A stretch of 44,902 nt of DNA from an uncultured Candidatus Saccharibacteria bacterium (GCA_964651655.1 CAZYVS010000005.1:1-44902); one strand, 5' to 3'. Counted from the stretch's first letter, positions 1,532 to 38,561 are shown. Numbers and translations: made by a program. The notes: generated by a model from the letters alone, not told the origin.

Positions 1532-2068
1532 ATGCGTATAAATAACTTTTTTAAATTAGTAATCGCGATTGGTGTTTCGCTAGGAGCGGGAGTGATTGGT
1601 TCCTTATTCACAACGCCTGCGGTCCAGTCTAGTTGGTATTTAGAGCTCACAAAGCCGGCTCTTAATCCTCCGGCGTGGGTGTTCGGTCCGGTCTGGGCGA
1701 CATTGTTTGCGCTTATGGGAGTTGCTGTTTTTCTCGTTTATATTAAAAACGAAAAAACAGTCCTGAGCGCAGTCGAAGGACGGCAATTTAAAAGAAAGAA
1801 AAAAATTGCACTTATTTTGTTTGGTATTCAATTGGTTTTGAACACCCTTTGGTCAATTATCTTTTTTGGTTCGACTTCGCTCACCATAAACGGTCTTAAC
1901 AACATCGGTATTGCGCTTGTTGAGATCGTGTTCCTCTGGCTTGCCATCCTCGCCATGATCATCGCTTTTGCGAAAGTTTCTCGTCCTGCCGCGTGGCTTT
2001 TGGTGCCGTATATTCTTTGGGTCAGCTTTGCCTCGTATTTAAACTACATGATTTGGATATTAAATTAA
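1532..2068 (+). CDS. tspO: TspO/MBR family tryptophan-rich sensory protein
   Basis: WYLELTKPALNPPAWVFGPVW and LLVPYILWVSFASYLN signatures. Confidence 0.92.
   Translation: MRINNFFKLVIAIGVSLGAGVIGSLFTTPAVQSSWYLELTKPALNPPAWVFGPVWATLFALMGVAVFLVYIKNEKTVLSAVEGRQFKRKKKIALILFGIQLVLNTLWSIIFFGSTSLTINGLNNIGIALVEIVFLWLAILAMIIAFAKVSRPAAWLLVPYILWVSFASYLNYMIWILN
1760..1781. repeat. In-frame palindromic element (family A) in tspO
   Basis: gtcctgagcgcagtcgaaggac, 5-bp terminal stem, encodes VLSAVEG in a loop. Confidence 0.7.
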
Positions 2069-2097
2069 TTATTGCTAAAATATAACTGTGAAGGGCT

Positions 2098-2805
2098 ATG
2101 CCACCGACCATGATTGCCATTTTTTACGCTTTTCTCACTTCGTTTGCAACGCTTATCGGCGGCCTGCTTCCGAATCTCGCCTTTTTCAAGAAATTAGATG
2201 GCCGCTACCTTATCGGTTTTGCCGCCGGAGCAATGCTCTCCATTTCTTTTTTTGATATTTTACCGGAATTGGACAGCGGAGCCATGACCTGGGTGGCCGT
2301 GGGTTTTTTCACTATTTTTTTGATAGAAAAATTCGTTATTCTTCATACGCTGGACGAATACGAATGCGAACATCGCTCTCTTGGCTGGCCGGCAATGATC
2401 GGCGTGGCGGCTGAAAGTATTGTGGACGGGGTGGCTATCGCTATCGGCTATTCAGTGGCGCCGGCTCTGGGACTTTCGGTAGCGATCGCGGTTATCGCGC
2501 ATGAGTTGCCAAGAGGATTTACCACTACCATGGTGATGAAGAATGCCGGGAAGGGTGCGGCGGCAGTAGCGGGAGCGCTCTTGATTGACGCCGGCTTCAC
2601 GCCCGTGGGCGCCCTTATTGGAACGCTTTTGCCCGATACGTATTTTATGGCCACGCTCGCATTTACCGCCGGAGCATTCCTTTATGTCGGAGCGGTGGAT
2701 TTGTTGCCGGAAATTCATAAGCGTTTTAATTGGAAAGTTATATCTTCCGTCATGCTCGGCGTGCTGGTTATTTATGGCGTAAGCAGATTTGTAAATTTTT
2801 TGTAG
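2098..2805 (+). CDS. ZIP family divalent metal transporter
   Basis: GFAAGAML, SIVDGVAI, AHELPRG, AGAFLYV motifs; multiple TM segments. Confidence 0.88.
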   Translation: MPPTMIAIFYAFLTSFATLIGGLLPNLAFFKKLDGRYLIGFAAGAMLSISFFDILPELDSGAMTWVAVGFFTIFLIEKFVILHTLDEYECEHRSLGWPAMIGVAAESIVDGVAIAIGYSVAPALGLSVAIAVIAHELPRGFTTTMVMKNAGKGAAAVAGALLIDAGFTPVGALIGTLLPDTYFMATLAFTAGAFLYVGAVDLLPEIHKRFNWKVISSVMLGVLVIYGVSRFVNFL

Positions 2806-2824
2806 TTGTCCACAAAACTTTATT

Positions 2825-2853
2825 TTGACAAATAGGGTCTGGGGATATATACT
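2825..2853 (+). promoter_or_regulatory. Sigma70 promoter of the metal cluster
   Basis: TTGACA-17 nt-TATACT upstream of GTG 2874. Confidence 0.7.
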
Positions 2854-2873
2854 GGCATGGTAAACTTACGAAA

Positions 2874-3275
2874 GTGAAATATCTCGCGACAGCGTTATTG
2901 GTAATAAGCTTAGTCGGAATAAGCGTTTTCGGTTTTTCTCTTTTTACCCACACCGCGATGGACGGTTCAAGTGGTAATTGTGTCGTTTCGGCCATAGATG
3001 GGACTAAATGCCCGACAAACATCATGGGGATGGCCTTGCACCATATCTTCGCCGCGCGCATACCCATGACGATAGTGACGCCGCCGATTTTCAGCTTGCT
3101 TTTATTGCTCGCTTCCCTGCTTTTTATGGGCTTAGCCTTTTTCTCCCCGCATTTTGTCAGACCCCCTCAATTAGTTTTTTACAAATATCGTTTTGGAGAT
3201 TCTTTTTCTCCGCCTCAAAAACAACAGCTCACTCGCTGGCTGGCGCTTCACGAAAACAGCCCGACTATTCTTTAG
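2874..3275 (+). CDS. Hypothetical membrane protein with Cys pair, HH and C-terminal WLALHENSP
   Basis: Two hydrophobic segments flank CVVSAIDGTKCP and ALHHI; first gene after the promoter. Confidence 0.7.
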   Translation: MKYLATALLVISLVGISVFGFSLFTHTAMDGSSGNCVVSAIDGTKCPTNIMGMALHHIFAARIPMTIVTPPIFSLLLLLASLLFMGLAFFSPHFVRPPQLVFYKYRFGDSFSPPQKQQLTRWLALHENSPTIL

Positions 3276-3378
3276 GACGCTGATACATAACCACTTGCCA
3301 AAAGGGTTTTGTATCGTCTGTCCGCTTATCCCTGCCTCAAGAGATTTTTCGTATTCCTTAATTCACTAAACAAAACAC

Positions 3379-3873: not shown

Positions 3874-3877
3874 TTGT

Positions 3878-4660: not shown

Positions 4661-4672
4661 CCAATCATAACT

Positions 4673-5747: not shown

Positions 5748-7754
5748 ATGAATCATAATCATCACTCCGGACACGACATGCAGAAAATGGAAGCGGATAT
5801 GCGTCGCCGGTTTTGGATTTCATTCTTGCTTTCAATCCCAATTTTTCTCTACTCTCCTGTTGGTATTAATTTTTTCGGACTTAATCTTCCTGCACCGATC
5901 CCGGTAAACTGGCTTCTTCTTATTCTCACTACCCCGATTGTCTTTTGGACCGGTTCGATTTTTATTACCGGCACCTATTATTCGCTCAAAGCACGGAAAC
6001 TTAATATGGCGGTTTTGGTTGCAACCGGAGTTTTGGCGGCGTATCTTTTCAGCGTACTTCTAACATTTATCCGTCCAGAGTCAGAAACCTTCTACGAAGC
6101 GGCGGCTCTTCTGGTTACTTTCGTATTATTCGGCCACTGGATGGAGATGAAAGCGCGCCGAGGTACGTCCGATTCCTTGCGCGCACTTTTTGATCTTGTG
6201 CCTCCCAAAGCCAATGTCATTCGCTCTGGCAAAGAGATCAGTATTCCCAGTGCGGAAATAGTTCAGGGCGACATCGTTGTGCTCCGGCCCGGCGACAAAG
6301 TGCCGGTGGATGGTGAAGTAACCATCGGCGAAACTTCCATTGACGAATCACTCGTCACAGGAGAATCTATCCCGGTTACCAAAACTGTTAGTGCAAAAGT
6401 GGTGGGAGGATCGGTAAATCTTACCGGCCTCGCACAATTTAAAGCTACGAAAGTGGGATCGGAGACGGTATTGGCACAGATCATAAAAATGGTTGAGACC
6501 GCCCAGAACTCCAAAGCTCCTGGCCAGCGCATAGCAGACAGGGCCGCCGGGTGGCTTGTTATGGTTGCCCTTGGCTCCGGTCTTGCCGCTTTCTTTAGCT
6601 GGTATTTCGGTGCTGACGCTGGTCTCTTAACCGCCCTTACCTTTGCGGTCTCAACCGTCGTCATTGCCTGTCCGGATGCCTTAGGGCTGGCCACACCTAC
6701 GGCAGTTGCTGTTGGGACCGGCATTGGCGCAAAACATAATATTCTTATTAAGGACGCGGCAACACTTGAAAACACCTCCAGACTCAATGCAATCGTGCTC
6801 GATAAGACAGGAACCCTCACGGAAGGAAAACCAAAAGTTACCGAAGTCGTTGTCCGACCCGGATACGACCACCGCGAAGTTTTATCGCTTGCGGCATCGG
6901 CTGAGCAAGGATCAAACCATCCAATTAGCGCGGCCATTCTTGAAGAAGCTCAAAAGAATGGGCTTAAAGCAAATGAGAAAGTGGAAAAATTTGAGAGCGT
7001 AGGCGGTCATGGCGTCCGCGCAGTAGTCAATGGCAAGTCGGTTGTTGTTGGTACTGAACGGCTCATGCAACAGAACAGAGTCGATCTTTTGCCGATTAAA
7101 AAAGATATTGACCGTCTGCTCAATACCGGCAATACTATCGGCATTATTGCGGTTGACGGGCAAGTGGCAGGAGCGATCGGTGTCGCAGACACAATTCGCC
7201 CCTCGGCCAAAAAATCTATGTTTGCCCTGAAGTCGCTCGGACTCGAAGTAGCAATGATCACGGGTGATCACGATCAAGTTGCAAAGGCAGTCTCAAACGA
7301 GCTTGGTATTGATCGCTACTTCGCACAGGTCTTGCCCGAAGATAAGGCTAAGTACGTCAAAAAGCTCCAAGACGAAGGCAAGTTCGTGGCTATGGTCGGC
7401 GACGGCATCAATGATGCTCCAGCGTTGGCGCAATCTGATATCGGTATTGCTATCGGCGCAGGAACAGATGTTGCTATTGAGACTGGCAATATTGTGCTTA
7501 TGAAATCAGATCCGTATGACATTGTCGCCGCGCTTCGTTTGTCGAAAGCGACGGTGGTCAAAATGAAACAAAATTTATTCTGGGCGGCTATTTATAACTT
7601 GCTGGCTATCCCGGTGGCGGCCGGAGTATTTTATAATTCGTTTGGTCTATCGCTACGTCCTGAAATTTCCGCTCTCCTTATGTCCGCCTCGTCCATTATT
7701 GTCGCCATCAATGCCGTGTCGCTTAAAAGAGTTGAGCCGAAGTTAAAAAGATAA
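5748..7754 (+). CDS. Heavy-metal (copper-type) P1B ATPase
   Basis: TGES, DKTGT, HP, GDGIND motifs; TM motifs CPD, YN, MSASS; His-rich N-terminus. Confidence 0.95.
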   Translation: MNHNHHSGHDMQKMEADMRRRFWISFLLSIPIFLYSPVGINFFGLNLPAPIPVNWLLLILTTPIVFWTGSIFITGTYYSLKARKLNMAVLVATGVLAAYLFSVLLTFIRPESETFYEAAALLVTFVLFGHWMEMKARRGTSDSLRALFDLVPPKANVIRSGKEISIPSAEIVQGDIVVLRPGDKVPVDGEVTIGETSIDESLVTGESIPVTKTVSAKVVGGSVNLTGLAQFKATKVGSETVLAQIIKMVETAQNSKAPGQRIADRAAGWLVMVALGSGLAAFFSWYFGADAGLLTALTFAVSTVVIACPDALGLATPTAVAVGTGIGAKHNILIKDAATLENTSRLNAIVLDKTGTLTEGKPKVTEVVVRPGYDHREVLSLAASAEQGSNHPISAAILEEAQKNGLKANEKVEKFESVGGHGVRAVVNGKSVVVGTERLMQQNRVDLLPIKKDIDRLLNTGNTIGIIAVDGQVAGAIGVADTIRPSAKKSMFALKSLGLEVAMITGDHDQVAKAVSNELGIDRYFAQVLPEDKAKYVKKLQDEGKFVAMVGDGINDAPALAQSDIGIAIGAGTDVAIETGNIVLMKSDPYDIVAALRLSKATVVKMKQNLFWAAIYNLLAIPVAAGVFYNSFGLSLRPEISALLMSASSIIVAINAVSLKRVEPKLKR

Positions 7755-11197: not shown

Positions 11198-13057
11198 ATG
11201 GAAATTCGTAATATAGCTATTATCGCGCACGTTGACCACGGCAAGACTACTCTGACCGACGCCTTGATGCGCCAGACCGGAACGGCGGCCGTAGGAGTCT
11301 CAATGGATTCAAACGTCCTTGAATTGGAGCGTGGCATCACTATTTATGCCAAAAATACATCCATTTTTTATAAGGGAACCAAAATCAATATTGTAGATAC
11401 ACCCGGACATTCAGATTTCGGTTCTGAAGTGGAAAGGGTTTTGCGTTCTATAGACACGGTGCTTCTCGTCGTCGATGCTCAAGAAGGACCGATGCCGCAA
11501 ACTCGTTTCGTTTTAAAGAAATCCCTGGAGCTCGGTTTGAAACCTATTGTAGTCATAAACAAAATTGACAAACCAGCCGCTCGACCAGAGGAAGTACATG
11601 AATCCGTACTGGAACTTTTTTTAGAACTAGGCGCTAACAACGAACAAATAGATTTCCCTACCGTCTACGCCATTGGACGAGAAGGCATTGCTAAGAAAAA
11701 TCTCACGGATAAATCCAAGGATTTAACTCCTTTGCTTGATGTTATTCTTGAACATGTCTCACCGGCGAATAGTCTCACGGAAAAAGGTCAGACCTTAGGT
11801 ACAAATTCTAAAGGTCTGACCTTGAGGAGCGAGAGCTTGAGGGCCCAGCCTTTTAATCTGGCTTATGACAATTTTCTCGGACGGCTGGCCATCGCGCGAA
11901 TTTATGAGGGCGCGCTGAAAGACGGACAAAAAGTTTTTGTCAAGAAACCAAACGGAGAAACTTACACCGGAAAAATAAACAAACTCTATACTTTTGAAGG
12001 ACTCAAAAGGAAAGAGGTGGACGAGGTCGTCGCTGGGGATATTTGCATGCTTGCGGGACTATCACAAATTTATATCGGTGACACAATAACAGCAAGCGAA
12101 GATGCTTCGGCTCTGCCGGCGATATCAGTTGATGAGCCGACTATTTCTCTTAATCTCGTCGTCAATGACTCCCCTTTTGCCGGGCGCGCCGGTAAATTTG
12201 TCACCAATCGGCAAATTCGCGAGCGATTAGAGCGGGAATTGGAAGTAAATGTCGGACTTAAAATAGATTTCTCATCCGGTGAATTCATAACTGTTTATGG
12301 CCGAGGAGAATTACATCTCGCTATTCTCTTGGAAAATATGCGGCGCGAAGGATTTGAACTTCAAGTGTCTCAACCGCACGTCATTATCCGTAAGGGTAAT
12401 GATGGTGAGCTTGTCGAACCATTCGAGGAAGTAATAGTGGATGTGCCTGAACAAATGTCTGGCACTGTAATCTCAAAATTAACAGAACGCCGAGCCATTC
12501 TTCTTGATATGAGAACCGATCCCTCGACTCCGCTCGGGATAAATAATCAAACTCGCCTTACTTTGGAAGTGCCGACCCGCGGACTCTTGGGCTATCGCAA
12601 TCAATTTGTCATAGACACCAAGGGCTTAGGTATTCTCTCTTCTCGATTCACCGCGTTCAAACCCTACACCGGTGAAATGAAACATGAAAAGAGTGGTTCG
12701 ATGATCTCTATGGAGAATGGCAAGGCTCTGGCCTTCTCGCTCAACAATCTACAAGACAGGGGTGTCTTATACATAGAGCCGGCAGATGAGGTGTATGAGG
12801 GGCAAGTGATTGGTAATACTTCAAGGGGTGAAGATCTCTACGTTAATCCGACCAAAGGCAAACAACTGACCAATATGCGAGCCTCCGGTTCGGACGAAAG
12901 CATTTTCCTGACACCGGCTTATAAACTTGATATTGAGCGAGCCATGGAAATTATGAAAGATGATGAATATATAGAAATTACCCCCACGGCTGTTCGTCTG
13001 CGAAAAATCCATCTAACCCAGACTGAACGTTCAAAAGCCCAGAGAAAGAACAGCTAA
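11198..13057 (+). CDS. typA: Translational GTPase TypA/BipA
   Basis: AHVDHGKTT, ERGITI, DTPGH, NKID, GRGELHL, EPFEE, YEGQVIG, EITP motifs. Confidence 0.97.
   Translation: MEIRNIAIIAHVDHGKTTLTDALMRQTGTAAVGVSMDSNVLELERGITIYAKNTSIFYKGTKINIVDTPGHSDFGSEVERVLRSIDTVLLVVDAQEGPMPQTRFVLKKSLELGLKPIVVINKIDKPAARPEEVHESVLELFLELGANNEQIDFPTVYAIGREGIAKKNLTDKSKDLTPLLDVILEHVSPANSLTEKGQTLGTNSKGLTLRSESLRAQPFNLAYDNFLGRLAIARIYEGALKDGQKVFVKKPNGETYTGKINKLYTFEGLKRKEVDEVVAGDICMLAGLSQIYIGDTITASEDASALPAISVDEPTISLNLVVNDSPFAGRAGKFVTNRQIRERLERELEVNVGLKIDFSSGEFITVYGRGELHLAILLENMRREGFELQVSQPHVIIRKGNDGELVEPFEEVIVDVPEQMSGTVISKLTERRAILLDMRTDPSTPLGINNQTRLTLEVPTRGLLGYRNQFVIDTKGLGILSSRFTAFKPYTGEMKHEKSGSMISMENGKALAFSLNNLQDRGVLYIEPADEVYEGQVIGNTSRGEDLYVNPTKGKQLTNMRASGSDESIFLTPAYKLDIERAMEIMKDDEYIEITPTAVRLRKIHLTQTERSKAQRKNS
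11784..11823. repeat. In-frame double palindrome (family B) in typA
   Basis: aaggtcagacctt ... aaggtctgacctt, perfect 13-bp inverted repeat with self-palindromic arms. Confidence 0.8.
12519..12540. repeat. In-frame palindromic element (family A) in typA
   Basis: atccctcgactccgctcgggat, reverse-strand variant of the tspO copy, encodes PSTPLG. Confidence 0.7.
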
Positions 13058-14971: not shown

Positions 14972-15664
14972 ATGGAACAAAATCAACAAAATACGTATGT
15001 TATTCCTTTAGCCATCGTGGTAGCCGGTGGTCTTATCGCGGCAGCCGTTTACTTTGGCGCTGGTACTGAAAGACCGAAAGCAATTACCAGTACCAACGAT
15101 CAAACTGCTGAAATTAATCTTGTGCCGGTAACAGAAAAAGATCACATTATAGGCAGTAGAAATGCCAAATTGGTAATAGTTGAATACTCGGATACCGAAT
15201 GTCCTTTTTGCAAAACTTTTCATAAGACAATGAAGGATGTCGTGCAAACATACAACGGGGAAGTGGCCTGGGTTTATAGGCACTTCCCTATCGCTCAATT
15301 GCATTCCAGGGCCATAAAAGAAGCGGAAGCAACGGAATGTGCCACCGAGCTTGGTGGCAATCAAGCATTCTGGAAATATATAGACAAAGTTTTTGAAACC
15401 ACTAATTCCAACAACTCTCTCGATCCTAATGAATTACCACGAATAGCAACGGCTATAGGGCTCGACAGTGCCGCCTTCAACACTTGTCTCTCAAGCGGCA
15501 AATATACCGAGTCTATAACTAAAAGCGTAGAAGAAGCAGTTAAGGCCGGAGCGCTTGGCACGCCTTATTCTGTTATCGTGTCGCAAGATGGACAAAAAGT
15601 ATTGATAAATGGAGCTGAACCGGTTGCGATGGTGAAGGCCAAGATTGATGCGTTACTCAAGTAG
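14972..15664 (+). CDS. DsbA-family thioredoxin-fold protein, membrane anchored
   Basis: EYSDTECPFC active site, YRHFP, cis-Pro GTP, N-terminal TM. Confidence 0.92.
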   Translation: MEQNQQNTYVIPLAIVVAGGLIAAAVYFGAGTERPKAITSTNDQTAEINLVPVTEKDHIIGSRNAKLVIVEYSDTECPFCKTFHKTMKDVVQTYNGEVAWVYRHFPIAQLHSRAIKEAEATECATELGGNQAFWKYIDKVFETTNSNNSLDPNELPRIATAIGLDSAAFNTCLSSGKYTESITKSVEEAVKAGALGTPYSVIVSQDGQKVLINGAEPVAMVKAKIDALLK

Positions 15665-15669
15665 CAACA

Positions 15670-17193
15670 TCAAATCCGTTCTTCAAGATATTTGAGGATG
15701 GCGTACATGGCATAAGTGTCTAGGCCACAGTAGATTTTCAAGTCGTTCATTATTTTTTCTTTTTTTTCCGAATCTTGGCCCTTCAAGACAGTCTGCATCC
15801 AAATACGTTGCGCTTGGCCGCCATCAGAAATATTAAGTTTTTTATAGCTGAATTCGGGTAAGAGGGCCGGCAGGACCAGTTTGATTGAAGCTTTTCCAAA
15901 AAAATCTTTATCCACAAACCAACCTTTGGAAAAAGGAACCATCAGATCAACCATCCTGTCGTTAACGCCGGATAAAAACTTTTCATATTTTGGATGCATT
16001 TTCCCCATTTCAATATTTCTGTTTTTTTCAAAAGTCATAAACCATGAAATAACCGATCCCTTACCGGAAAAATCGCTTTCGAGGTGTTTAAGAAGCGATA
16101 GTGTCGGGTCGCTGTTTTTTGTATGCAAAAATTCTTTGTGCGTCAACTTGCCTCCCGGTTTATCCAGAATATGAAGAGAATATTGAAAAGGCACTTGCTG
16201 ATACGGCCGATAGCCGTCAAAGACCGGTATGACGCCAGCCATCGTTTCATAATCTAAAAAATGCAACGGGTATCTTAAAGCATTAATAAAATTGGCAATT
16301 TCTTCTTTATTAATATGCTGGGTTCCGGATTTCATGGCTTCCACTTGTCGCAATTGTTTTTCTGTCAGCGGACCATCGAGCGGAATTTCGTCTAAAAGTT
16401 CAATGCCGTTATCTTCAAGCCAGGCAAGCGTTTTCGGATCGGAACTGTAAAGTTTATAAATACTGTAACGAGGCAATTTTCCTTTAATCGCCTGAAAAAT
16501 TTCAAGCCACTCTTCCAAAGTCTCGCCACCATGCGTAAGATGGCGCGGAGAGATATCGGGCATCTGTTTTTCCTGAAGAATCTTAAACGCTTTTTTGATA
16601 TTTTCGCGTGTTTCTTTAAGACTCTCGCGCACCTCATCGGTCACATCCGATTTTTCACTAATGCCGGCGGGATCAATTTCTCCGCGCTTGATATATTTGT
16701 TGTTCACATGAAGAACATGCATATGGCGCACGATCAGCCCCGCATCCTCCAGCACAATGGTTTGAAAAGCCAAATCGGGAATATGCTCCGGTTTAACACT
16801 GGTAGAGGACTTGATTTCATATAAATCATAAACTTTATCATCCACTCTTTCCAAAACATCAAAAATGGATGTAATATTATTTGCTTCAACTCTGCCCTGT
16901 AAAATAACTTTCGTTCCTTTCTTGATTTCCTGCATTGTAAGATCAGGTAGAGCGTAATATCGAGTGCCACTGAAAACCTGCTTGCCGGCAGGCAGGTCGC
17001 TATCATTTTTATAGCCAAGCTTAACGGCTTTGGGAAAAAGTTTTTCTGCGTATTGTTCAAAGAGCGTTCCTTCGTCAAAAAGCGCTTGCAGTTCTTCGTC
17101 CGGCAAAGGTAATTTATCTTTATCGTACTTCTTGAGCCACAGCCATGCCGGATGTTTCAGAAACATCATAAACTCTGATTTTGATATAACCAT
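15670..17193 (-). CDS. DUF2779 domain protein (N-terminal PD-(D/E)XK-like, C-terminal RNase H-like)
   Basis: FDVL...YEIKSS, DLAFQ, HFLDYET, QVPFQYSLH, YCGLDT motifs. Confidence 0.85.
   Translation of the reverse strand: MVISKSEFMMFLKHPAWLWLKKYDKDKLPLPDEELQALFDEGTLFEQYAEKLFPKAVKLGYKNDSDLPAGKQVFSGTRYYALPDLTMQEIKKGTKVILQGRVEANNITSIFDVLERVDDKVYDLYEIKSSTSVKPEHIPDLAFQTIVLEDAGLIVRHMHVLHVNNKYIKRGEIDPAGISEKSDVTDEVRESLKETRENIKKAFKILQEKQMPDISPRHLTHGGETLEEWLEIFQAIKGKLPRYSIYKLYSSDPKTLAWLEDNGIELLDEIPLDGPLTEKQLRQVEAMKSGTQHINKEEIANFINALRYPLHFLDYETMAGVIPVFDGYRPYQQVPFQYSLHILDKPGGKLTHKEFLHTKNSDPTLSLLKHLESDFSGKGSVISWFMTFEKNRNIEMGKMHPKYEKFLSGVNDRMVDLMVPFSKGWFVDKDFFGKASIKLVLPALLPEFSYKKLNISDGGQAQRIWMQTVLKGQDSEKKEKIMNDLKIYCGLDTYAMYAILKYLEERI
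16976..16997. repeat. In-frame palindromic element (family C) in the DUF2779 gene
   Basis: acctgcttgccggcaggcaggt, 22-bp palindrome with one mismatch, encodes LPAGKQ. Confidence 0.75.
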
Positions 17194-18931: not shown

Positions 18932-20545
18932 CTATAATATTTTTTTCTTTTCTTCGAGCGTTCTCATTTGAGCATGCACTTCTTGAATCCTAAGGGTTAA
19001 ATCGGCAATCAAACCGCTATCCTTGGACGCTTCCGCTTGAGCCAGTCCGGATAATAATCGGCTAAGGTGATCGCGCAACAGCAGTCCGGACAAATTGTCC
19101 GCCAGTTCAAGTTCTTCTTTCTTAAGAGAAAGATTCTCTGGAGAAGATTCCGGCAATTCCTGCCGCCAGAATTTAATTTCAGCTAAACGCTCTTCGATCT
19201 GTCCTTGTTGAGAAAGAGAGGATGTCCTCGCGATGTCTGCCGTCTTTGCATCCTTAAAATCCGACCCTTGAGAAATTTTCACTTTCTTCAAATCTTCCCA
19301 GAGTATCGTTTCTTTGATGCTCGTGCGTTTGGCCAGCATCGAGATAAAGTGCGATTGTTCTATGGCGCTTTCAATGAGCTTAATCATCGGCAGAATTTTC
19401 TTCTCAACCTGCTGGCCAAGTTTTCTTGAATCTTTTTCTTTTTCTGCAATCTTGTTGAAAAAGAATTCCACGGCCGGAAGCGACTCCCGAAGAATATCCC
19501 GCCATTTTTGAGGATCTTTTTTGATTACTTCCGCCGGGTCAAGACCGGTCGGCAGATTAGCTACCTTCACTTCAAGACCTAAAGATATGCCTAAAAAACT
19601 GGCTTTTTCTGCCGCTTTTTCTCCCGCAGGGTCCCCGTCAAAGGCGATAATAATCCTGGGAGACAGGCGCTTGAGACGCTCTAGATGCATACGAGTAAAG
19701 GTCGTGCCCGAAGAAGCCACGGTGTTTTTGATACCCGATTGATGAGATAGCGTTAAATCTATCTGCCCTTCCACGAGAACGGTGTAGTTCTTTCTGCGAA
19801 TCTGGTCTTTGGCCTTATCTAAACCATGCAACACTTCGCCTTTGGTAAAAAGTATGGTATCCGGACTGTTTAAATATTTCGGTTCTGTCTCTTGGGCCAA
19901 GGCTCGACCAGAAAAAGCGATAATTGAGCCGTTAGAATCGGCAAGCGGAAACATAATTCTATCCCGAAAAACGTCATATGGTTCTTTACTCTTGATTTCA
20001 TCGCCAGATTTTTTTATCAAGCCGGCTCTGGCAAGAAGCGTATCATCGTATCCTAGACCTTTCAGATACTCAATAAGAGCCCGCCATTCTGCCGGCGCGT
20101 AACCGATGCGCCAATCTTTGATTGTTTCGGCGCTTAGACCCCTTGAAGTTATGTAACTGCGCGCCGATTGATTGCCGGCTAATTCCTTTTCAAAGAACTC
20201 GGCGGCTTCCTCGAGAACATTCAAAAGTTTATCTTTTTCGGTTCTTGATTCGTCACGGCCATGATATTTGATTTCCACACCCGCTTTTTCAGCCAGCAGC
20301 TTGAGAGCTCCGCGGAAATCCAGACCTTCTATTTCTTCCACAAAAGTAAAAATGTCTCCTTTGGCGCCGCAACCGAAACAACAAAAACTTTGACGCACTG
20401 GCGACACAAAAAAAGACGGGGTTTTTTCATTATGAAAGGGACAACGCGCCTTGAAACTTATTCCCGCCTTTTCCAGTTTGAGATAACCGGAGACTATCTC
20501 CACTATATCTAAGCGCTCTTTGATTGTGTCAACATCGCCTCGCAT
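18932..20545 (-). CDS. dnaG: DNA primase
   Basis: CPFHNEKTPSF/CFGC zinc finger, KYLNSP, TOPRIM VEGQID and FDGD. Confidence 0.97.
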   Translation of the reverse strand: MRGDVDTIKERLDIVEIVSGYLKLEKAGISFKARCPFHNEKTPSFFVSPVRQSFCCFGCGAKGDIFTFVEEIEGLDFRGALKLLAEKAGVEIKYHGRDESRTEKDKLLNVLEEAAEFFEKELAGNQSARSYITSRGLSAETIKDWRIGYAPAEWRALIEYLKGLGYDDTLLARAGLIKKSGDEIKSKEPYDVFRDRIMFPLADSNGSIIAFSGRALAQETEPKYLNSPDTILFTKGEVLHGLDKAKDQIRRKNYTVLVEGQIDLTLSHQSGIKNTVASSGTTFTRMHLERLKRLSPRIIIAFDGDPAGEKAAEKASFLGISLGLEVKVANLPTGLDPAEVIKKDPQKWRDILRESLPAVEFFFNKIAEKEKDSRKLGQQVEKKILPMIKLIESAIEQSHFISMLAKRTSIKETILWEDLKKVKISQGSDFKDAKTADIARTSSLSQQGQIEERLAEIKFWRQELPESSPENLSLKKEELELADNLSGLLLRDHLSRLLSGLAQAEASKDSGLIADLTLRIQEVHAQMRTLEEKKKIL

Positions 20546-23500
20546 AGTAATTGTTCTTTATGACCGCCCTTGAAACTGGTGCCGGCTGGGATAAGACGAC
20601 CGATAATAACATTCTCCTTTAAACCGACCAAATTATCTTCAACTCCGCGAATAGCGGCCTGAATCAGCACTCGAGGCGTATGCTGAAACGAAGCGGCAGA
20701 CAAGAAACTTGAACGAGAAAGAGAGACTTCCGTAATGCCCATAATGACAGCATCGGCCGTAGCTTCCTCCAATCCTTTCTCTTTCATTAAATTATTGATT
20801 TTGACAAGTTCAGAAACTTCAACAATATCCCCGCGAGTCAAACCAGTGTTTCCCGGATTTTTAATCTTGCGACGAGCAAACATCTGGCGCACGATTAATT
20901 CAATATGTTTGTGAGAAACCGCAGCGCCTTGCAGTTCATAGAGTTTAGACACTTCATGAATAATATAATTTTCTGTCTTTTCCCGACCGGCATAACGAAA
21001 AAGCTCATCTAAATCCACCGAACCATCGGTCATAATATCGCCTTTTTTAACGTCTTGGCCGACCTTAACCAAAAGGTATCTGGAGGCTTGAACGGTATAT
21101 TCATTATCAAGCTTCTTTACCCCAACTTGTCCCGAACTTTGTCGAGGAGGCTTCGCCGAAGAATTTTTCTTGGTCTCTCCGATATCGGGAGTCACGACTA
21201 TCAATCTGTCATGACCAAGCACCTTGATCTCGGTAACCGTGCCGTCAAGATGGCTGATAACCGCCGAGATCTTGGGTTTGCGTTTCTCGAATATTTCTTC
21301 GACACGCGGCAGACCGGCCGTGATATCACCGCCGGTTGAGGCGATGCCGCCGGAGTGGAAAGTGCGCATGGTCAGCTGTGTTCCCGGTTCGCCAATAGCT
21401 TGGGCGGCAACCGTACCAACCGCTTCGCCCAATTCAATCGGTTTGTTATTCCCCAGATCCACGCCATAGCACTTGATACAGACGCCGTGAGTAGATTTGC
21501 AGGCCAGAGGCGAACGGACATTCACAGATTCAACGGAGGATTTATCGACCACTTCCGCATCCGCCTTGGTAAACAGATGCCCGCGTTTAAACAGCACCGC
21601 GCCGGCGCCGTCAAGCAAATCAACGGCCAGAAACCGACCTTTAATATTTTTGGACAACAACATTTCAATGCCGGAAGCAGTTTTTTTGTGAATAGTGATT
21701 CCCTCCTTTGCGCCGCAATCTTCTTCGGTTATAATCTCGTCTTGTGCCACATCAAAAAGTCGTCTGGTCAGATAACCGGCCTTGGCGGTGTTAAGCGCTG
21801 TATCGGTCAAACCTTTGCGACTGCCGTGAGTGGTGATGAAATATTCTAGCGGAGTCAGCCCTTCTTTGTAACACGACAAAATAGGAAATTCCAGAGATTC
21901 ACCGGAAACATTGGCAATAATACCTTTCATGCCGGCCATTTGAGTGAGATTGCCGAGAGAACCTCTGGCTTCCGAATAAGTCATATCATAGACAGAATCA
22001 TTGATATTAAGAGTGTCGGGAATGAGTTTTTCAACTTCCGATTTTATTCCTTGCCAAATTTCCACCGATTTGACAATACGCTCGCGTTCAGACAGCAAAC
22101 CTTCCCGATATTGGCCCACGACCTCATTAACCGCCGCGCGGCCCTTATCAATAATAGCTTTTTTACCCAACGGAATATTGACGTCATCAAGTCCCCAAGT
22201 CACCCCGGAAGTGGTGGCGTAACGGAAACCAAAATTTTTAATTTTATCCATAATCGGCGGGATATTTTCAATGCCGTAGCGATCTATCAAATCGTCAACG
22301 AGTTCGGACATTTTTTTTCTGCTCATTTCATGATTAAGAAACGGATAGTTTGACGGTAAAACACCGTTAAAGAGGAGCCGGCCGACGGAAGTCTCAAATC
22401 TTTTTCCTTCAAAATGTTTGTACCGCTCGGTATTAGTCGGCAAGACGAAAATTTTGGCGCGCAGGCCGACGACGCCAAAGTCATAGGCGGTGACGGCGCT
22501 GTTTGGATTTGAATAGTATCTCCCCTCGCCCTTTTCGCCCGGCACAGTACGCGTCATCCAAAAAGTGCCAAGCACAATGTCAAGCAATTTGGCGGATACC
22601 ACCGGTTCGCCATTGCCCGGCTTCAAGATATTTTTATCCGCCGCCATCACCAAACGCGCCTCGGCTTGAGCTTCATCGGAGAGGGGCACATGAACGGCCA
22701 TTTGATCGCCGTCAAAATCGGCATTGAAAGCGGTACAGACCAGTGGATGAAGCTGAATGGCGTTGCCTTCGATAAGCACCGGCTGAAAAGCTTGAATACC
22801 CAAACGATGCAGTGTCGGCGCGCGATTCAAGAGCACATATTTACCATGAATAATTTCCTCAAGAATTGCCCAAACTTCCGGAATGGCATCTTCAATAAGA
22901 CGGCGGGCACCCGGAATATTATAGGCCAGTTCGCGTTTGAGCAGTTCAGAAACAATAAACGGTTTAAAAAGTTCCAGGGCCATATGTTTGGGCAGACCGC
23001 ACTGATGGAGCCTCAATTCCGGACCAACGACGATTACCGATCGGCCGGAATAATCCACGCGTTTGCCCAAAAGATTCTGCCTGAAAAGGCCTCTTTTACC
23101 CTTCAGATTATCAGACAATGATTTAAGTGGCCGACGTTGAGATTGACTGCCGGAAATACTTGAGTGTCTGATGGTGTTGTCTATCAGGGCGTCAACCGCT
23201 TCCTGAAGAATCCTTTTTTCATTGCGTAAGATAACATCCGGAGCATTTATCTCTTTGAGTTTCTTGAGACGATTATTACGATTAATCACCCGACGATAAA
23301 GGTCATTGACATCGGAAGTGGCGTAACGTCCTCCGTCCAAAGGCACCATCGGTCTAATCGCCGGCGGGATAACGGGAACGCGCACCAGAAACATCCACTC
23401 CGGCCTATTGCCGGAATTAATCATCCATTGAATAGTGCTGATGCGTTTGTTTAATCTCGGAATTTCAGTCGAGGACGAATGCTCAAGCCCCGTTTCCAGT

Positions 23501-29498: not shown

Positions 29499-29530
29499 AT
29501 AAAAATACTCTCTGGGGTATTTTTATTTTG
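29499..29530. terminator. Bidirectional terminator between HNH and the MmeI-like gene
   Basis: ataaaaatactc/gggtatttttat stem with A and T tracts. Confidence 0.7.
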
Positions 29531-32213
29531 CAAGTCTTTTATACAAATCAAACAAGAAAGAGATTCTTTCTTGGTCATTTTTGAATTTTTTGCCATAACA
29601 AGTTTCTACCGCTCTATCAAGTTTTTCATGAGCTTCTCTAAGGTCAGACGGCATAGTATTGGGGTCATATAGGTCAGCTAGCGAACTATTAGGATAGATG
29701 GTGCGAAAAAAGATTACATCTTCCGCGCACTTTTCTACTGCCTTTTTCTTCTCCCCCGACACATTTTGTGGCCAAGGAAAATTATTGTAAACAATATTAT
29801 TTGAATAACGGTAATCACTCTTTAGACGACCACAAACATATTTCACCCATACCATATGCATTTCAGATTGCAGAACACCGAAGTGGTAAAAAGTGGCGTT
29901 TGGAACAGCGAGACATGTATCTCCAATAATTTTTTCCTTATCAAAAAAACTCATGGGAATATAATCTCTGTTCTCTGAACTTACTCTAGGAATCACAATA
30001 TAATCACTTTCCGGTTGTTTTATAAATCCAAAAAGGGTCGGGTAATTAGCAAGATCTCTGGTTGCTTCTCTTGTACTTTTATTTCTATCCTTCTTTACGT
30101 TTTCCACACGCTCTAAAACTTTTGGTAATTTTTTTAAAGCTGTCGGATTGGCATCTTTAAGCCAAAGACAATACCGCTTCTCACCATTTAGATATTCTTT
30201 CGCGCTTATCAATTCCCTTATAAAGGGTTCTGCCGCAGGTTCGCTTTCAAGAAATATGTCTTTTTCTTCAAGTGTAAAAAGAAAATTCCCGCCATCATTC
30301 GGCTGATTTCCATAAGTTATTTCTGGAACAGATGAAATTGGTCTTGTTCGGCCTTCAATCAAAACATCTTCCCCTTCTACAAGATACGGATTTATGTGTT
30401 TTACTTCCCTCTCTTTGTCTTCGCCTTTTATATCCACATATTCATATAGATACTTTCTTTCCACATCAAATGCGCCGAAACCAATTATCACACAATAGAC
30501 CGCTGCCACACCCGGAGCATCGTTAGACCATTTGAATGTTTGATGGGCAAAATGAATAACAATATTGAAATCTTTGAGATACTTCCAGAGTAAGCCCACT
30601 TGCTCGCCCTGTGAAATTGAATTGGTCGAAACAAAACCAACTTTTATTTTGGTGTCTTGAATATATTTTGCCGCTTTGGCATACCACGCGGTAACAAAGT
30701 CAAGATTGCCTGCACCCTTCATGTCGTCAAAAGCTTTTATGATTCCTTCTTTTTGTTCATCCGACATCAACCGAGCACCTAGAAATGGCGGGTTACCTAG
30801 AATATAAGAAAGTTCTGTTTTAGAGACAAGATCGTTCCAATCAAAAGATAGAGCATCGGCATTTTTGATGGTTGCAGAGCTTTTAATTGGTAGTTCTGGT
30901 ATGTATTTACCAAGCATTTTGTCTAGCTCAAGATTCATCTGATGGTCTATTAAATGCATTGCCACTTCTGCAATACGCGCTGGAAATTCTTCAATCTCAA
31001 TTCCATAAAATTGACCTATATTTAGGCGTCGTGGATCTTCTGGTAACTTCTCGTTGTTTTTGGATTTAATTTTTAAAATTTCCATTTCAAGCGTTCGCAA
31101 CTCTCGATAAGCAATTACAAGAAAATTTCCGCACCCACAAGCAGGATCCATAAATTTAAGTTTTCCGAGTTTTGTATGAAATGCATCAAGCCGTTTTGGA
31201 TTGTGTCGAACCACATCAAGCTCAATGTATAGATCATCAAGAAAAAGGGACCTTATAAGTTTGAGGATATTTTGCTCCGACGTGTAGTGGGCTCCAAGAT
31301 GCCTACGAGCGTCTTCATTCATTACCCCCTGGAACAATGAGCCAAAAATGGCGGCTGAAATAGCGGACCAATCAAAATTACAGCATTTTATAAGTCTAAG
31401 TTTTGTGCTTACATCACAAGACAAAATACCAATATTTCTTGAGAAAATACCACCGTTGACATACGGCATTTTTGCCAAGTCTTCGTCCAAATTAAACTGC
31501 CGACCCTTTTCATCTGTATTCAGAATTTGAAATATTTCAGCAAGCTTTGGGCCAAGGTCACTCCCATCTGCACTAATTCTATTGTTGATGTAATTTTTAA
31601 AGACATCTTTTGGAAAAATTCCGGTATCATCGGCGAAAAGACAGAAAAGTACTCTGATTAGAAAAACCTCTAAGTCAGGGCCAGAATAGCCTGTCTTAGC
31701 TATTTCATTGTGAAATTCTGCCATTAGTTCGGCAGCTTGAATGTTTGCGGCTACTTCTACTTCATAATCAATCTGATTTTCATGACCAGAAATAAATCCG
31801 AACAAATCGATATGTTGAGAAAGTTCTCTCGTTGGAAAATCATACTGTTTGTCTTCATCTAAGTCATATACTCGAAACTTTTCAAAATCTGAAACAATTA
31901 TATATCTTGGAAGTTCTTCTTCTTTGAGTCCGGGGAAATAATCTATTGCCTGTTTATAAGCCGTATCCAAACTCTTTCCTCTTGATTTATGTTCAACAAG
32001 CAAAACGCCCTTCCAAAGAAGGTCAGCATATCCTTGGGAATTATCTAATTTTTTAATTGGGTGTTCAAAGGAGGCAATACGCCGCCTAGTAACACCAAAC
32101 ACTTCAAAAAAATTATCCCAAAATGTTTTGGCCTCCGCATCTTCTCTTGTTTCTAAAGCCCATTCTAAAGAAAAAGCTAGGGCTCTATTTCTTATTTCAT
32201 TCGGACTAATCAT
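29523..32213 (-). CDS. MmeI-family type IIL restriction-modification enzyme (fused endonuclease, m6A methyltransferase, TRD)
   Basis: N-terminal YADLLWKGVLLVEHKS nuclease motif, DPACGCGNFL motif I, GNPPF motif IV, C-terminal LADLYDPNTMP. Confidence 0.93.
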   Translation of the reverse strand: MISPNEIRNRALAFSLEWALETREDAEAKTFWDNFFEVFGVTRRRIASFEHPIKKLDNSQGYADLLWKGVLLVEHKSRGKSLDTAYKQAIDYFPGLKEEELPRYIIVSDFEKFRVYDLDEDKQYDFPTRELSQHIDLFGFISGHENQIDYEVEVAANIQAAELMAEFHNEIAKTGYSGPDLEVFLIRVLFCLFADDTGIFPKDVFKNYINNRISADGSDLGPKLAEIFQILNTDEKGRQFNLDEDLAKMPYVNGGIFSRNIGILSCDVSTKLRLIKCCNFDWSAISAAIFGSLFQGVMNEDARRHLGAHYTSEQNILKLIRSLFLDDLYIELDVVRHNPKRLDAFHTKLGKLKFMDPACGCGNFLVIAYRELRTLEMEILKIKSKNNEKLPEDPRRLNIGQFYGIEIEEFPARIAEVAMHLIDHQMNLELDKMLGKYIPELPIKSSATIKNADALSFDWNDLVSKTELSYILGNPPFLGARLMSDEQKEGIIKAFDDMKGAGNLDFVTAWYAKAAKYIQDTKIKVGFVSTNSISQGEQVGLLWKYLKDFNIVIHFAHQTFKWSNDAPGVAAVYCVIIGFGAFDVERKYLYEYVDIKGEDKEREVKHINPYLVEGEDVLIEGRTRPISSVPEITYGNQPNDGGNFLFTLEEKDIFLESEPAAEPFIRELISAKEYLNGEKRYCLWLKDANPTALKKLPKVLERVENVKKDRNKSTREATRDLANYPTLFGFIKQPESDYIVIPRVSSENRDYIPMSFFDKEKIIGDTCLAVPNATFYHFGVLQSEMHMVWVKYVCGRLKSDYRYSNNIVYNNFPWPQNVSGEKKKAVEKCAEDVIFFRTIYPNSSLADLYDPNTMPSDLREAHEKLDRAVETCYGKKFKNDQERISFLFDLYKRLAK

Positions 32214-35115: not shown

Positions 35116-35117
35116 AG

Positions 35118-35190: not shown

Positions 35191-35240
35191 CTAGCCGCTA
35201 ACTTTAGCAAAAAGAGTGAGTAATTAAAAGATTGTATAAA

Positions 35241-36121: not shown

Positions 36122-36221
36122 GGGAACGGAGCCCGTTTTTACGGCGCTCTTGTGTTTATTATAATATTGTTCCCTTCAACCATTATAACTCTTTTAAATC
36201 ACAAAAAGTTGCGGGCAGACT

Positions 36222-37163
36222 TTATAATGATTTCTTTAACTGTTCTATAAAAGGAATACTGTTCGCATCAACGCCGTGCAACTCTGCAATGGCTTTGGCG
36301 GTGACGCTCGCTATGGATAAAACATAGAGAAGTTTGTTTGTCCTGCCTTGAGGAAGGTTTAAAGATAATACTTCCACGCCCTGCGAAGAAGCTAGGGTTT
36401 GAAAGACGGTCATGACCCGCGAAAGCTCAAGACTGTCTTCCTGATCCGAGAGAAGCAGAACCTTTAGATTCTTGGTCATAAGTCCTGCCGTTTCCGGAAT
36501 AATTCCCTGCGCTTCGTTATGCGCCAGTTCTGGAAAATAATTGGCAAATGCCGGAATTTTTCCCGTTTCATTTAGCATTATTTTCCAGATATAAGAGAGG
36601 GTGTAATTACTTCTAGACGAATAAATTAAGGGAATTTTCTTCTCAAATTTTTCACCGATTTCTTTTCCGTGTTCAACGGCTTTTTGAAAATCGATGAGAT
36701 CCTCTTGGGGGTCCAGAAACAAATACTCGCGACCTATAACACAAAGAAGTGCGCGTAACATATATAACACAGCATCTCTGGGCGCAAAACCGGATGGGAT
36801 AAGAACATGCGGCAGTTTATTCTGAAGTGTCCAGTTTAGAAGCATTCCTCCCGAAGTAATTACAGCTAAAGTGTGTTTCTTCGCCAGTGCCTCCTTAGCG
36901 AAACTCAAGGTTTCGGCAGTATTGCCTGAATACGATATGGCGATATACAAAGTATTGCCTTCATGTTTCGTTGGCAGGCCGTAATCATCATGGAGCCAAG
37001 CTGGAAATGTCGGGTCCAAAAAGAAAAGTATCCTAGCCGCTAAGCCAGACCCGCCCATACCACCGACAATCACATTGTCAAATCCGGTGATCTTCTTGCG
37101 AGACAAATCGCCTTCCAACTTCGGAATAAACGATAGCTGTTTCCTAATCTCCGCCTCATTCAT
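36222..37163 (-). CDS. Bifunctional phosphoglucose/phosphomannose isomerase (SIS domains)
   Basis: GGMGGSG, SYSGNTAET, NETGKIPA, FPELAHNE. Confidence 0.9.
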   Translation of the reverse strand: MNEAEIRKQLSFIPKLEGDLSRKKITGFDNVIVGGMGGSGLAARILFFLDPTFPAWLHDDYGLPTKHEGNTLYIAISYSGNTAETLSFAKEALAKKHTLAVITSGGMLLNWTLQNKLPHVLIPSGFAPRDAVLYMLRALLCVIGREYLFLDPQEDLIDFQKAVEHGKEIGEKFEKKIPLIYSSRSNYTLSYIWKIMLNETGKIPAFANYFPELAHNEAQGIIPETAGLMTKNLKVLLLSDQEDSLELSRVMTVFQTLASSQGVEVLSLNLPQGRTNKLLYVLSIASVTAKAIAELHGVDANSIPFIEQLKKSL

Positions 37164-37233
37164 ACACCCAGTGTAACACCTATATTAAAATTTTCCCCGC
37201 TTATAAATTTGAGTAACCATATCGATTTTATTA

Positions 37234-37998
37234 TTATAGATATTCTAGCAGACGATCATAGTTAATAAAATCTAAAAGTTCGTATCCATACTGGATGGTG
37301 AGGCCGAAATTGTCAGTTGATAAAAGAATACCGAGAATAATGAGAAATATACCACCGACAATAGATACTCCTTTGAGATACTTTGAGATTTTGTCGATAT
37401 AAACAGTTGCGCGTGAGAACGCGAAAGCAATCACCAGAAACGGAATGGCAAGACCGAATGAGAATACGGTAAGCATTAGTCCGCCCTGAAGCGCGGTGCC
37501 ACTCGTTCCGGCAAGAAGAAGTATCGAACCGAGAATGGGCCCAACGCATGGCGTCCAGCCAAGCGCGAATGTGCCGCCGATAAAGAGCGAGCTAGAGGGC
37601 TTGCCGAGCGTAAGCCACTTCGGGATGGGAATTCGTTTATCAGTTTGGAAAAACGAGAGCTTGAAGAAGCCGAGCATAAAAAGACCGAAGAGAATGACTA
37701 AGACGCCGCCAATGCGCGCAAGCCAAATGCGATACGGCGCGAGCGCCGTACCGACAAATCCTGCCAGTACGCCAAATATTATAAAGACGAACGAAAAACC
37801 GATGATAAAGGCAAGGCCGTTTAAAAAAATCTTTCGGCGGGCAATCCTTGCCGTTGCGGGATTTTTAAGCGCTTCTTGATCTACTCCGCTGATAAAACCC
37901 AAATAGGCAGGTACAAGCGGCAGAGTACATGGCGCAAGAAACGTAAGCAGTCCCGCAAAGAACGAAGCGACTATGAATCCGATATTTAGTTCAATCAT
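37234..37998 (-). CDS. ccdA: CcdA-family thiol-disulfide membrane transporter
   Basis: FLAPCTLPLVPAY and GWTPCVGPIL. Confidence 0.92.
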   Translation of the reverse strand: MIELNIGFIVASFFAGLLTFLAPCTLPLVPAYLGFISGVDQEALKNPATARIARRKIFLNGLAFIIGFSFVFIIFGVLAGFVGTALAPYRIWLARIGGVLVILFGLFMLGFFKLSFFQTDKRIPIPKWLTLGKPSSSLFIGGTFALGWTPCVGPILGSILLLAGTSGTALQGGLMLTVFSFGLAIPFLVIAFAFSRATVYIDKISKYLKGVSIVGGIFLIILGILLSTDNFGLTIQYGYELLDFINYDRLLEYL

Positions 37999-38561
37999 AG
38001 TGATGTTTCGTTAGTTTCTACTTGTCTCGAGCCTTGTCGAGAGATAATTTTATTGACATGCTCTCGCATCTCTTCTAATTCCATTGGACCCCGTTTGTGT
38101 ATGACGATATCTCCGGCACTATTTACAAAAATGGTTTCCGGCATAGAAAAACCGCCAATTGATTTATAAAAGGAATCCGACGAATCAAGAAGAAAGAGCA
38201 TGTCGTTTGAGATGCCGAGCTCATCGGTATATCCCCTTGCCTTATCAAGCGGTTCTTGCCGATCAATTGCAATAACCGTTATATCGTCACCAAACTCTTT
38301 TTGAAGCTCTGCAAAATCAGGCAACTCTTCGCGACAAAACGGACACCATACCGCCCAGCTGTTTATCACAAGCGGCTTTCCTCGAAATTCCGAGAGAGAA
38401 ACATTGTTGCCTTGGTAACCCATAAGCGAAATAGAAGCGAATGTATCAAAATCACTCGCACTTGATTGCGGTTTCTCTCCCCGGTCTCTCATAACAAGGA
38501 AAACTCCCCCGAGAACTAAAAGTATTACGATGCCAATAAAGAGAGTAGAATTTGTTTGCAT
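37995..38561 (-). CDS. TlpA-family disulfide reductase, membrane anchored
   Basis: NSWAVWCPFCREELP, MPET cis-Pro; ATG 38561 chosen to avoid overlap with the upstream gene. Confidence 0.92.
   Translation of the reverse strand: MQTNSTLFIGIVILLVLGGVFLVMRDRGEKPQSSASDFDTFASISLMGYQGNNVSLSEFRGKPLVINSWAVWCPFCREELPDFAELQKEFGDDITVIAIDRQEPLDKARGYTDELGISNDMLFLLDSSDSFYKSIGGFSMPETIFVNSAGDIVIHKRGPMELEEMREHVNKIISRQGSRQVETNETSL
38021..38043. repeat. In-frame palindromic element (family A) in the tlpA tail
   Basis: cttgtctcgagccttgtcgagag, encodes SRQGSRQ. Confidence 0.7.

Follow-up and report, generated by a model that had tools for sequence, protein, structure and literature searches.

The 44,902-nt stretch CAZYVS010000005.1:1-44902 (assembly GCA_964651655.1), called the window here and always meant at its full length, contains five copies of a short repeated DNA unit, family A, inserted in frame into tspO (twice), typA, rpoC and tlpA. 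The unit is about 24 nt, or eight codons, long and consists of a 6-nt 5' tail followed by an 18-nt hairpin, in which a stem of 3–5 base pairs of free sequence closes a conserved 12-nt loop, GAGC-NNN-GTCGA. The copies are lineage-specific in-frame insertions, and related copies occupy other sites in relatives. Comparison with these relatives, a structure-aware scan and covariation in the stem confirm that the family is real. We consider it likely that its members are non-autonomous dispersed repeats resembling repetitive extragenic palindromes (REPs), which spread via the hairpin and are mobilised in trans. The copies, the longer insertion to which one of them belongs and a look-alike are as follows.

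1756..1781 (+): copy 1, tspO loop 1; tail AACAGT and core CCTGAGCGCAGTCGAAGG at 1762-1779, sense to the gene and read as VLSAVEG; the hairpin GTCCT...AGGAC spans 1760-1781
1868..1891 (-): copy 2, tspO loop 2; GTTTAT followed by GGTGAGCGAAGTCGAACC, stem flipped to GGT/ACC; antisense to the gene, GSTSLTIN
12521..12544 (-): copy 3, typA; tail ATTTAT at 12539-12544 followed by CCCGAGCGGAGTCGAGGG at 12521-12538
21125..21148 (+): copy 4, rpoC; ACTTGT followed by CCCGAACTTTGTCGAGGA; antisense, PRQSSGQ(V)
21118..21165 (-): the rpoC insertion, 48 nt or 16 residues in the C-terminal region; NSSAKPPRQSSGQVGV
38020..38043 (+): copy 5, C-terminal tail of tlpA; ACTTGT followed by CTCGAGCCTTGTCGAGAG, stem CTC/GAG; antisense, SRQGSRQ(V)
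12402..12425 (+): look-alike in typA; ATGGT-GAGCTTGTCGA-ACCAT, GELVEP; matches the structural pattern

A first-pass annotation of the window had described four of these sites as palindromes of 20–24 nt. The sequences are where it placed them and encode the peptides it gave (VLSAVEG, PSTPLG, PRQSSGQ and SRQGSRQ), with both orientations and three reading frames represented among the four. All four are genuine copies, the list being incomplete in that the copy at 1868-1891 (-) was missed and that the rpoC site is half of a 48-nt insertion. A repeat unit of about 24 nt is likewise real, while the word palindrome applies only to its stem of 3–5 bp around the conserved 12-nt loop. The annotation was right in placing conservation at the DNA level, a single motif appearing in unrelated proteins as LSxVEG, xSTxLx and RQxSxQ. 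The similarity among the four sites, from which it had argued, does not carry the case: searching with its consensus is circular, because the consensus was derived from the same four sites, and at three mismatches it gives six window matches for 3.6 expected, which is no enrichment. Pairs of 20-mers with an identity of at least 17/20 are common in the whole window (111 direct and 119 inverted, about 230 together), so the best pair, tspO versus typA (17/20), is not exceptional.

What distinguishes the sites is their structure and their coincidence with insertions. A structure-aware scan (GAGC-N2-4-GTCGA with at most one mismatch and at least three complementary flanking pairs) returns five matches in the window, compared to a mean of 0.3 in 20 shuffles; these are three of the first-pass sites, the new tspO copy on the minus strand and the typA look-alike at 12402-12425. 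With two mismatches in its core, the rpoC copy comes out only in the search with the first-pass consensus. Of the six motif matches, five coincide exactly with rare insertions specific to the lineage; such insertions make up about 1–9% of each protein. The sixth, the look-alike, is probably native sequence or a chance match and its membership is doubtful, because relatives show no multi-codon indel there and it overlaps the conserved EPFEEV motif.

Presence/absence indels relative to relatives, which the first-pass annotation had proposed to look for, are found at all four of its sites. In tspO, the VLSAVEG loop is variable, with (T)LSEVEG(R/L) in many relatives and nothing there in others. 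The motif of copy 1 is kept in the orthologues L210 and L211, in the latter with a compensatory change of the closing pair (T-A to C-G). Copy 2 is an insertion of eight residues, which many TspO relatives have and others lack, and its coordinates as determined at the protein level, 1868-1891, are those of the predicted 24-nt unit. All 24 nucleotides are identical in the window, L210 and L209, in genes that are only 72–77% identical elsewhere; among these tspO genes, synonymous identity at third positions is 0.51–0.62. L211, which is most closely related to L209, lacks the copy, so that its presence is phylogenetically discordant. L209 also contains a nested copy. Its outer copy, CCCTGAACGA^AGTCGAAGGG, corresponds to copy 1 of the window and is broken in the loop by the 24-nt sequence TTTATCCCGAGTGGAGTCGAGGGG. 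This inner copy shares 17 of 18 positions, and also the tail, with the typA copy of the window; in L211, the outer copy is intact.

In typA, protein alignment with 120 relatives delimits an insertion of seven residues, DPSTPLG (12518-12538), with the DNA sequence GATCCCTCGACTCCGCTCGGG. It is missing in the nearest relatives (86–88% amino acid identity: P0002-P0010 and L003), and at this site the alignment with E. coli BipA shows a gap (NPDG------KGR). L004, with a TypA of 77% amino acid identity, has CCTTCGACTGCACTCGGG at the site, the reverse complement of which matches the tspO copy at 16 of 18 positions. L003 and L127 have a further family-A copy in typA (PSTNSGRAV); nothing is inserted at this site in the window, L004 or L005.

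The rpoC insertion consists of a family-A unit and 24 further nucleotides (AATTCTTCGGCGAAGCC...TGGGGTA). It is absent in L003, L005 and L006, is the sole indel in about 1000 aligned residues, and falls in a 22-residue gap relative to a solved beta' subunit. In a relative of about 85% identity that occurs in the same metagenomes, this stretch of rpoC is shorter by exactly 48 nt. The tail and YTT middle of the rpoC copy match the tlpA copy (20/24 nt, same frame), an intergenic copy in L211 and CTT- or TTT-middle copies of other phyla. The insertion may represent a family-A unit nested in a different 24-nt element. The nucleotides outside the unit (21118-21124 and 21149-21165) contain the mini-palindrome CTTCG-G-CGAAG; apart from a 14-mer with one mismatch in L169, no second copy of them was found in the window or the loci. 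In tlpA, the insertion is 24 nt long and adds eight residues to a protein that in most relatives ends with KIIS(R/T)NETSL; L207 is empty at this site, and L208 has a related 24-nt insert, CCCTCGACAGGGCTCGGGACAAGT.

The insertions in tspO loop 2 and tlpA and the nested copy of L209 are thus exactly 24 nt, tail plus hairpin. Added peptides range from 7 to 16 residues across the genes, and four of the five window copies are antisense to the mRNA. The typA and rpoC inserts lie in gaps relative to solved structures and the tlpA insert lies in a C-terminal tail, which places the copies in loops or a tail and, as had been proposed, leaves the reading frames open. Orthologues that bear the peptide also have the hairpin, with compensatory stem changes, rather than the peptide without the DNA palindrome. 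Presence and absence among close relatives, the nested copy and the tandem arrays described below are the behaviour of a small non-autonomous insertion that the annotation had envisaged. Copy density is about one per 9 kb in the window and close relatives (five in 45 kb and about ten in 89 kb of relatives' loci). In 993 kb around TypA from 79 distant metagenome relatives (61–70% TypA identity) the motif is at background level; therefore, it is not general in distant TypA relatives.

Hairpin structure and occurrence in other phyla

Across 11 lineage copies, some of them orthologous, 95.5% of the stem cells are paired and four of the six pairs show compensatory changes. The covariation score of this set is reached by none of 500 shuffles, and pairing falls to 64% or less when the partner columns are slid. 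The stems seen are CCT/AGG, CCC/GGG, CTC/GAG, GGT/ACC and CAT/ATG. Inside the stem, the conserved loop could be structured further, with tandem G.A pairs, a G-C pair and a C-G pair leading to a GNA triloop.

The tails are loosely conserved: ACTTGT, ATTTAT and GTTTAT in the window, and GCCTGY or TGTCAY elsewhere. Classified over 249 copies, 28 have xGTCAY and 77 have YYTGY, in which TGT and the first core C together read TGTC. The ACTTGT|C copies of the window contain TGTC, and ACGTC is found in the copy of L003. The canonical consensus unit, whose length is a multiple of three, is free of stop codons in five of its six frames, allowing it to survive easily in genes.

Species-representative genomes were scanned with the exact pattern CCTGAGCNNNGTCGAAGG, the matches listed being a lower bound. 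Among the matches listed are Saccharibacteria, Andersenbacteria, Curtissbacteria, cyanobacteria, Acidobacteriota, Bacteroidota, Planctomycetota, Chloroflexota, Nitrospirota and others, and also cultured Flavobacteriia and Treponema. The middle triplet, left free in the pattern, is GNA in 87 of the 133 listed genome matches (65%), with 6% expected by chance. Viral contigs carry the same family with the same tails, the triplet being GNA in 64 of 129 matches (50%, again for 6% expected). In 132 copies from genome contigs, conservation is limited to positions -6..+19 with random flanks beyond, giving the unit sharp ends. The pair -1/+18 is of the Watson-Crick type in 70 of 86 cross-phylum copies, compared to 35.5 ± 4.1 in shuffles. 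The excess of GNA, the bounded conservation and the pairing of -1 with +18 show that the cross-phylum matches are not due to chance. Counted over 249 copies, closing pairs are C-G (103), T-A (57), T.G (38), G-C (18) and C.A (4); the preference of T.G over C.A indicates that one particular strand folds alone.

Head-to-tail arrays with a 24-nt period are present in L067, L068 and the viral contig L289. The L067 array (358-423, minus strand) is from an alphaproteobacterial metagenome-assembled genome (MAG) and comprises three units; translated manually, these read in frame as HVLSEVEG HVLSEVEG PVLSEVEG, near the C-terminus of an apparent open reading frame (ORF). The peptides LSEVEG, PSTSLR and FDFAQG, which we take to be recurrent in 'hypothetical proteins', would presumably be explained by family A.

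How the unit may spread

Spread as a REP-like dispersed repeat, which we favour as the likely explanation, would involve a discrete unit moving via a single-stranded, strand-specific hairpin intermediate. This intermediate would be recognised through its conserved loop by an enzyme acting in trans, the likeliest type being an IS200/IS605 or RAYT-type (REP-associated tyrosine transposase) HUH/Y1 transposase. In a compact genome, selection may then leave only insertions in tolerant protein loops and tails, and the added peptides are probably neutral passengers. A more far-reaching version is put forward tentatively, as somewhat doubtful: the 24-nt unit may be actively mobile and coding-compatible, shared by bacterial phyla and their viruses, recognised at its loop by a widely conserved trans factor, and engaged in repeated remodelling of the surface loops of essential proteins, such as RNA polymerase beta' and TypA/BipA, in bacteria of the candidate phyla radiation (CPR), whose genomes contain hardly any intergenic sequence.

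Several observations weigh against mobilisation in trans. The first-pass annotation had suggested testing for co-occurrence with RAYT/Y1 or GIY-YIG genes; the precomputed Pfam assignments for the whole window include no transposase, RAYT, GIY-YIG or HNH protein, and clustering of 2150 ORFs near 120 cross-phylum copies reveals no enriched protein family, the clusters being generic ones (ABC-F, short-chain dehydrogenase, crotonase and histidine kinase). The mobilising enzyme is thus one that we still infer. The published class nearest to family A, the CGTC-tagged REPs, is also without a known dedicated transposase (PMC3733652). In the four metagenomes, no within-strain insertion polymorphism is seen in the assembled contigs. 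The typA insertion is a net 21 nt and not 24, about half of the 249 copies fall in no tail class, and, some lineage copies being orthologous, the covariation counts are not fully independent. Finally, the folding energies are ordinary, at −1.4 to −4 kcal/mol as DNA (nearest-neighbour), and the z-scores, that of the tlpA copy excepted, are close to 0, so standard parameters indicate no unusual stability.

Some of these observations would be accommodated if the unit were copied without a dedicated enzyme, by template switching, slippage or short-patch gene conversion among existing copies during replication or repair, with hairpin formation in single-stranded DNA promoting both gains and precise losses. 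The lack of an enzyme in the window or near copies is then expected, the arrays with a 24-nt period and the copy nested in a loop are places where strands may mispair, and the identical insert in loop 2 of otherwise diverged tspO genes fits conversion. Two typA events of net 21 nt with replaced flanking codons are also untidy for a transposase. However, copying of this kind leaves unexplained how the unit first arrived at naive sites, in unrelated genes without flanking homology, why the 12-nt loop is constant across phyla while the stems vary, and why the unit has sharp ends. We consider it unlikely as the explanation of the family.

Still less probable is that the hairpin acts in the transcript, for example as a REP-like 3' stabiliser or as a protein-binding site, the unit perhaps spreading via an RNA intermediate, as has reportedly been proposed for small dispersed repeats of cyanobacteria, and the intragenic copies being by-products. 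The location of copies in genomes of other phyla is in keeping with such a role, as only about 50% are inside long ORFs, compared to 87% of random positions, and intergenic copies are found between tandem (32) and convergent (26) gene pairs more often than between divergent ones (11). In tandem contexts of these genomes, copies are sense to the upstream gene in 24 cases and antisense in 8 (p = 0.007). However, the viral contigs show 16 versus 16, and because they fail to replicate this bias we do not rely on it. Intragenic copies in other genomes are also evenly divided (24 sense, 24 antisense), and the mostly antisense orientation of the window copies likewise weighs against a role in the transcript. 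The tolerance of T.G over C.A on the motif strand (38 versus 4) agrees with folding as RNA, but does not separate RNA from DNA, because among mismatches in single-stranded DNA, too, G.T is the most stable. The window encodes no reverse transcriptase, and no matching Rfam family was found for the window and 20 loci at gathering thresholds, nor for one tandem array at a lax E-value. The only notable Rfam match is a group II intron (RF02001, D1-D4-3) in L086 (Leeuwenhoekiella aestuarii; 6146-6395, minus strand); a family-A copy (6274-6291, plus strand) lies inside this intron, with a second copy about 160 nt away.

[quoted passage not shown] Least credible, to the point of being negligible, is a chance likeness of ordinary loop indels or of peptide modules under selection at the protein level, for which the abundance of similar 20-mer pairs, the unenriched consensus and the motif match without an indel at 12402-12425 could be cited, and against which stand the coincidence of five of the six matches with rare insertions, the use of the same DNA in three frames and both orientations, the compensatory stem changes, and the cross-phylum copies with their non-random loops and covarying stems.

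Other hairpin inserts and the gene context

Other hairpin inserts are present in the window and in relatives. A near-perfect palindrome of 39 nt, GGTCAGACCTTAGGTACAAATTCTAAAGGTCTGACCTTG, lies in typA at 11786-11824 (+), where it is read in frame as GQTLGTNSKGLTL; L003, L127 and L004 lack it. In each of the four metagenomes, contig word depth is 5–7 times as high over 11782-11828 as over the flanks, and other contigs share only about 52–58 nt around 11786-11824, indicating a multi-copy dispersed repeat.

The DUF2779 gene contains a 21-nt hairpin insert, CTGCCTGCCGGCAAGCAGGTT (LPAGKQV), at 16975-16995 (-), which is absent in L003 and L005. A related element, CTGCCTGCCGGTAGACAGG (GLPAGRQ), occurs at about 7514 (-) of L003, at another position in the same DUF2779 protein, and a further one, CTGCCTGCCGGCAGGCAGG, at 15320 of L206. 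The inserts of this type make up a second hairpin family, whose copies sit at positions that differ from genome to genome. In TypA, the loop that bears the window copy, at residues 441-447, holds PATGSAGR, PATGPADK, PASTRGGEPTRGG or GLSALAG in other lineages. The inserts include CCGCCACCGGACCGGCGG (PATGPA) in L005, at 8425, and the 13-residue PASTRGGEPTRGG in L127, and short G+C-rich palindromic inserts are found in the same loop of P0011, P0012, P0015, P0016, P0035, P0047, P0067, P0073, P0077 and P0096. It is a hotspot for several hairpin families, or a site that tolerates them.

The window has a G+C content of about 43%, recurs in four groundwater-metagenome runs and includes tspO, typA, rpoD, dnaG, rpoC, rpoB and tlpA among its genes; the synteny from typA to rpoC is kept in relatives. 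The best-named relatives of its TypA are from Candidatus Zambryskibacteria and other Parcubacteria, and the window is from a Zambryskibacteria-like Parcubacteria (CPR) MAG, that is, from an ultra-small groundwater bacterium.

Genes are on the plus strand from 1 to 15.6 kb and on the minus strand from 15.7 to 40 kb, with the switch within 15600-15700. Cumulative GC skew has its maximum at about 14–16 kb and declines afterwards. Both are compatible with a replication- or transcription-related switch; with five copies only, the orientation of the element relative to the strand switch is uninformative. The stop region of rpoC and the start of dnaG share 37 nt (20509-20545, minus strand), as they do in L005 and L006, while the overlap is 4 nt in L003. 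A six-residue insertion in dnaG, SQGSDF (TCTCAAGGGTCGGATTTT, 19256-19273, minus strand), is seen relative to L005 only and is not obviously palindromic.

At 29523-32213 (-), the window encodes an MmeI-family type IIL restriction-modification enzyme of 896 residues, with MmeI_N, helicase-like, MTase, TRD and C domains, and a LexA-like repressor gene is located nearby. MmeI recognises TCCRAC. A link between family A and this enzyme was considered and dropped, because the family-A motif does not contain that site.

Comparison with known repeats

The closest published analogues appear to be the CGTC-tagged REPs with the short Rickettsia palindromic elements (RPEs), and the small dispersed repeats (SDR) of cyanobacteria. 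The likeness to Rickettsia elements and REPs suggested by the first-pass annotation was apt, the best fit being the short CGTC-tagged class that includes RPE-4 and RPE-6 (PMC3733652). REPs, of 20–40 bp, are divided into GTAG- and CGTC-tagged superfamilies, and Neisseria dRS3 and the elements RPE-4 and RPE-6 of Rickettsia conorii have been equated with CGTC REPs (Di Nocera, De Gregorio & Rocco 2013, PMC3733652). In the same work, the CGTC tag is often TGTC, in-frame copies within genes are recorded, among them genes for replication and repair, and CPR/Patescibacteria are not among the phyla listed as carrying these repeats (PMC3733652). CGTC REPs combine a one-sided tag with a hairpin, and the loosely conserved tails of family A, many of which contain TGTC, may correspond to that tag. 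Like family A, CGTC REPs occur in several phyla, mostly downstream of genes, have intragenic in-frame copies and lack an adjacent transposase. They differ in having a stem of 8–9 bp that starts with A-T, a loop of 4–5 nt and a CCA tail, where family A has 3–5 pairs, a 12-nt loop and no CCA, and also in that family A forms head-to-tail arrays. The motif CCTGAGC..GTCGAAGG is absent from the supplementary tables of PMC3733652. No description of the family-A motif, or of REP-like elements in CPR bacteria, was found in the literature searched.

In size, compensatory hairpin changes and nesting, SDR may be the best behavioural analogue. The SDR of Nostoc/Anabaena, treated by Elhai et al. in 2008 (Genome Res 18:1484; cited in PMC3116915), are reportedly 21–27 nt long, with compensatory hairpins, in varied contexts including genes; they are said to show nested self-insertions and to have been proposed as the smallest mobile elements, confined to one cyanobacterial subgroup. 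Family A, in contrast, is found in a CPR lineage and many other phyla.

Classical REPs and REPINs are served by RAYT, an IS200/IS605-like Y1 transposase, carry a GTAG tag and usually form species- or genus-specific families. Family A resembles them as a short hairpin in dispersed copies with a 5' tag, without target-site duplication and, in ordinary genomes, mostly extragenic and downstream of genes; strand-specific recognition as a single strand is a further plausible likeness. Family A lacks the GTAG tag, the window lacks a RAYT, the loop motif crosses phyla, and there are no inverted doublets of the REPIN type except for the two tspO copies, which are 105 nt apart. RPE-1 of Rickettsia (associated with Ogata et al. 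2000) is reportedly about 100–150 bp long and Rickettsia-restricted; it shares with family A the in-frame insertion of a palindrome, the small-genome host and peptides at the protein surface, and differs in size and taxon. The GC clusters of yeast mitochondria are short, mobile, G+C-rich palindromes in an A+T-rich compact genome, occasionally in frame (VAR1). They are organellar, about 30–40 bp long, flanked by AT-rich target repeats and unrelated in sequence to family A.

Small palindromic repeats are usually viewed as extragenic features of single species. Family A stands out by the occurrence of one motif from CPR bacteria to Acidobacteria, Bacteroidota, cyanobacteria and viral contigs, by its length of eight codons, and by its presence inside rpoC and typA of a genome with little non-coding DNA. 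For annotation, such inserts give rise to apparent indel hotspots and spurious ORFs in MAGs, which the motif can be used to flag. The conserved loop offers a means of searching for the factor that mobilises or binds the unit, a question that is the same for CGTC-type REPs. If actively mobile, the unit would be among the smallest transposable units known and, if mobile at all, it would offer a concrete route by which the essential proteins of ultra-small bacteria may gain lineage-specific loops.

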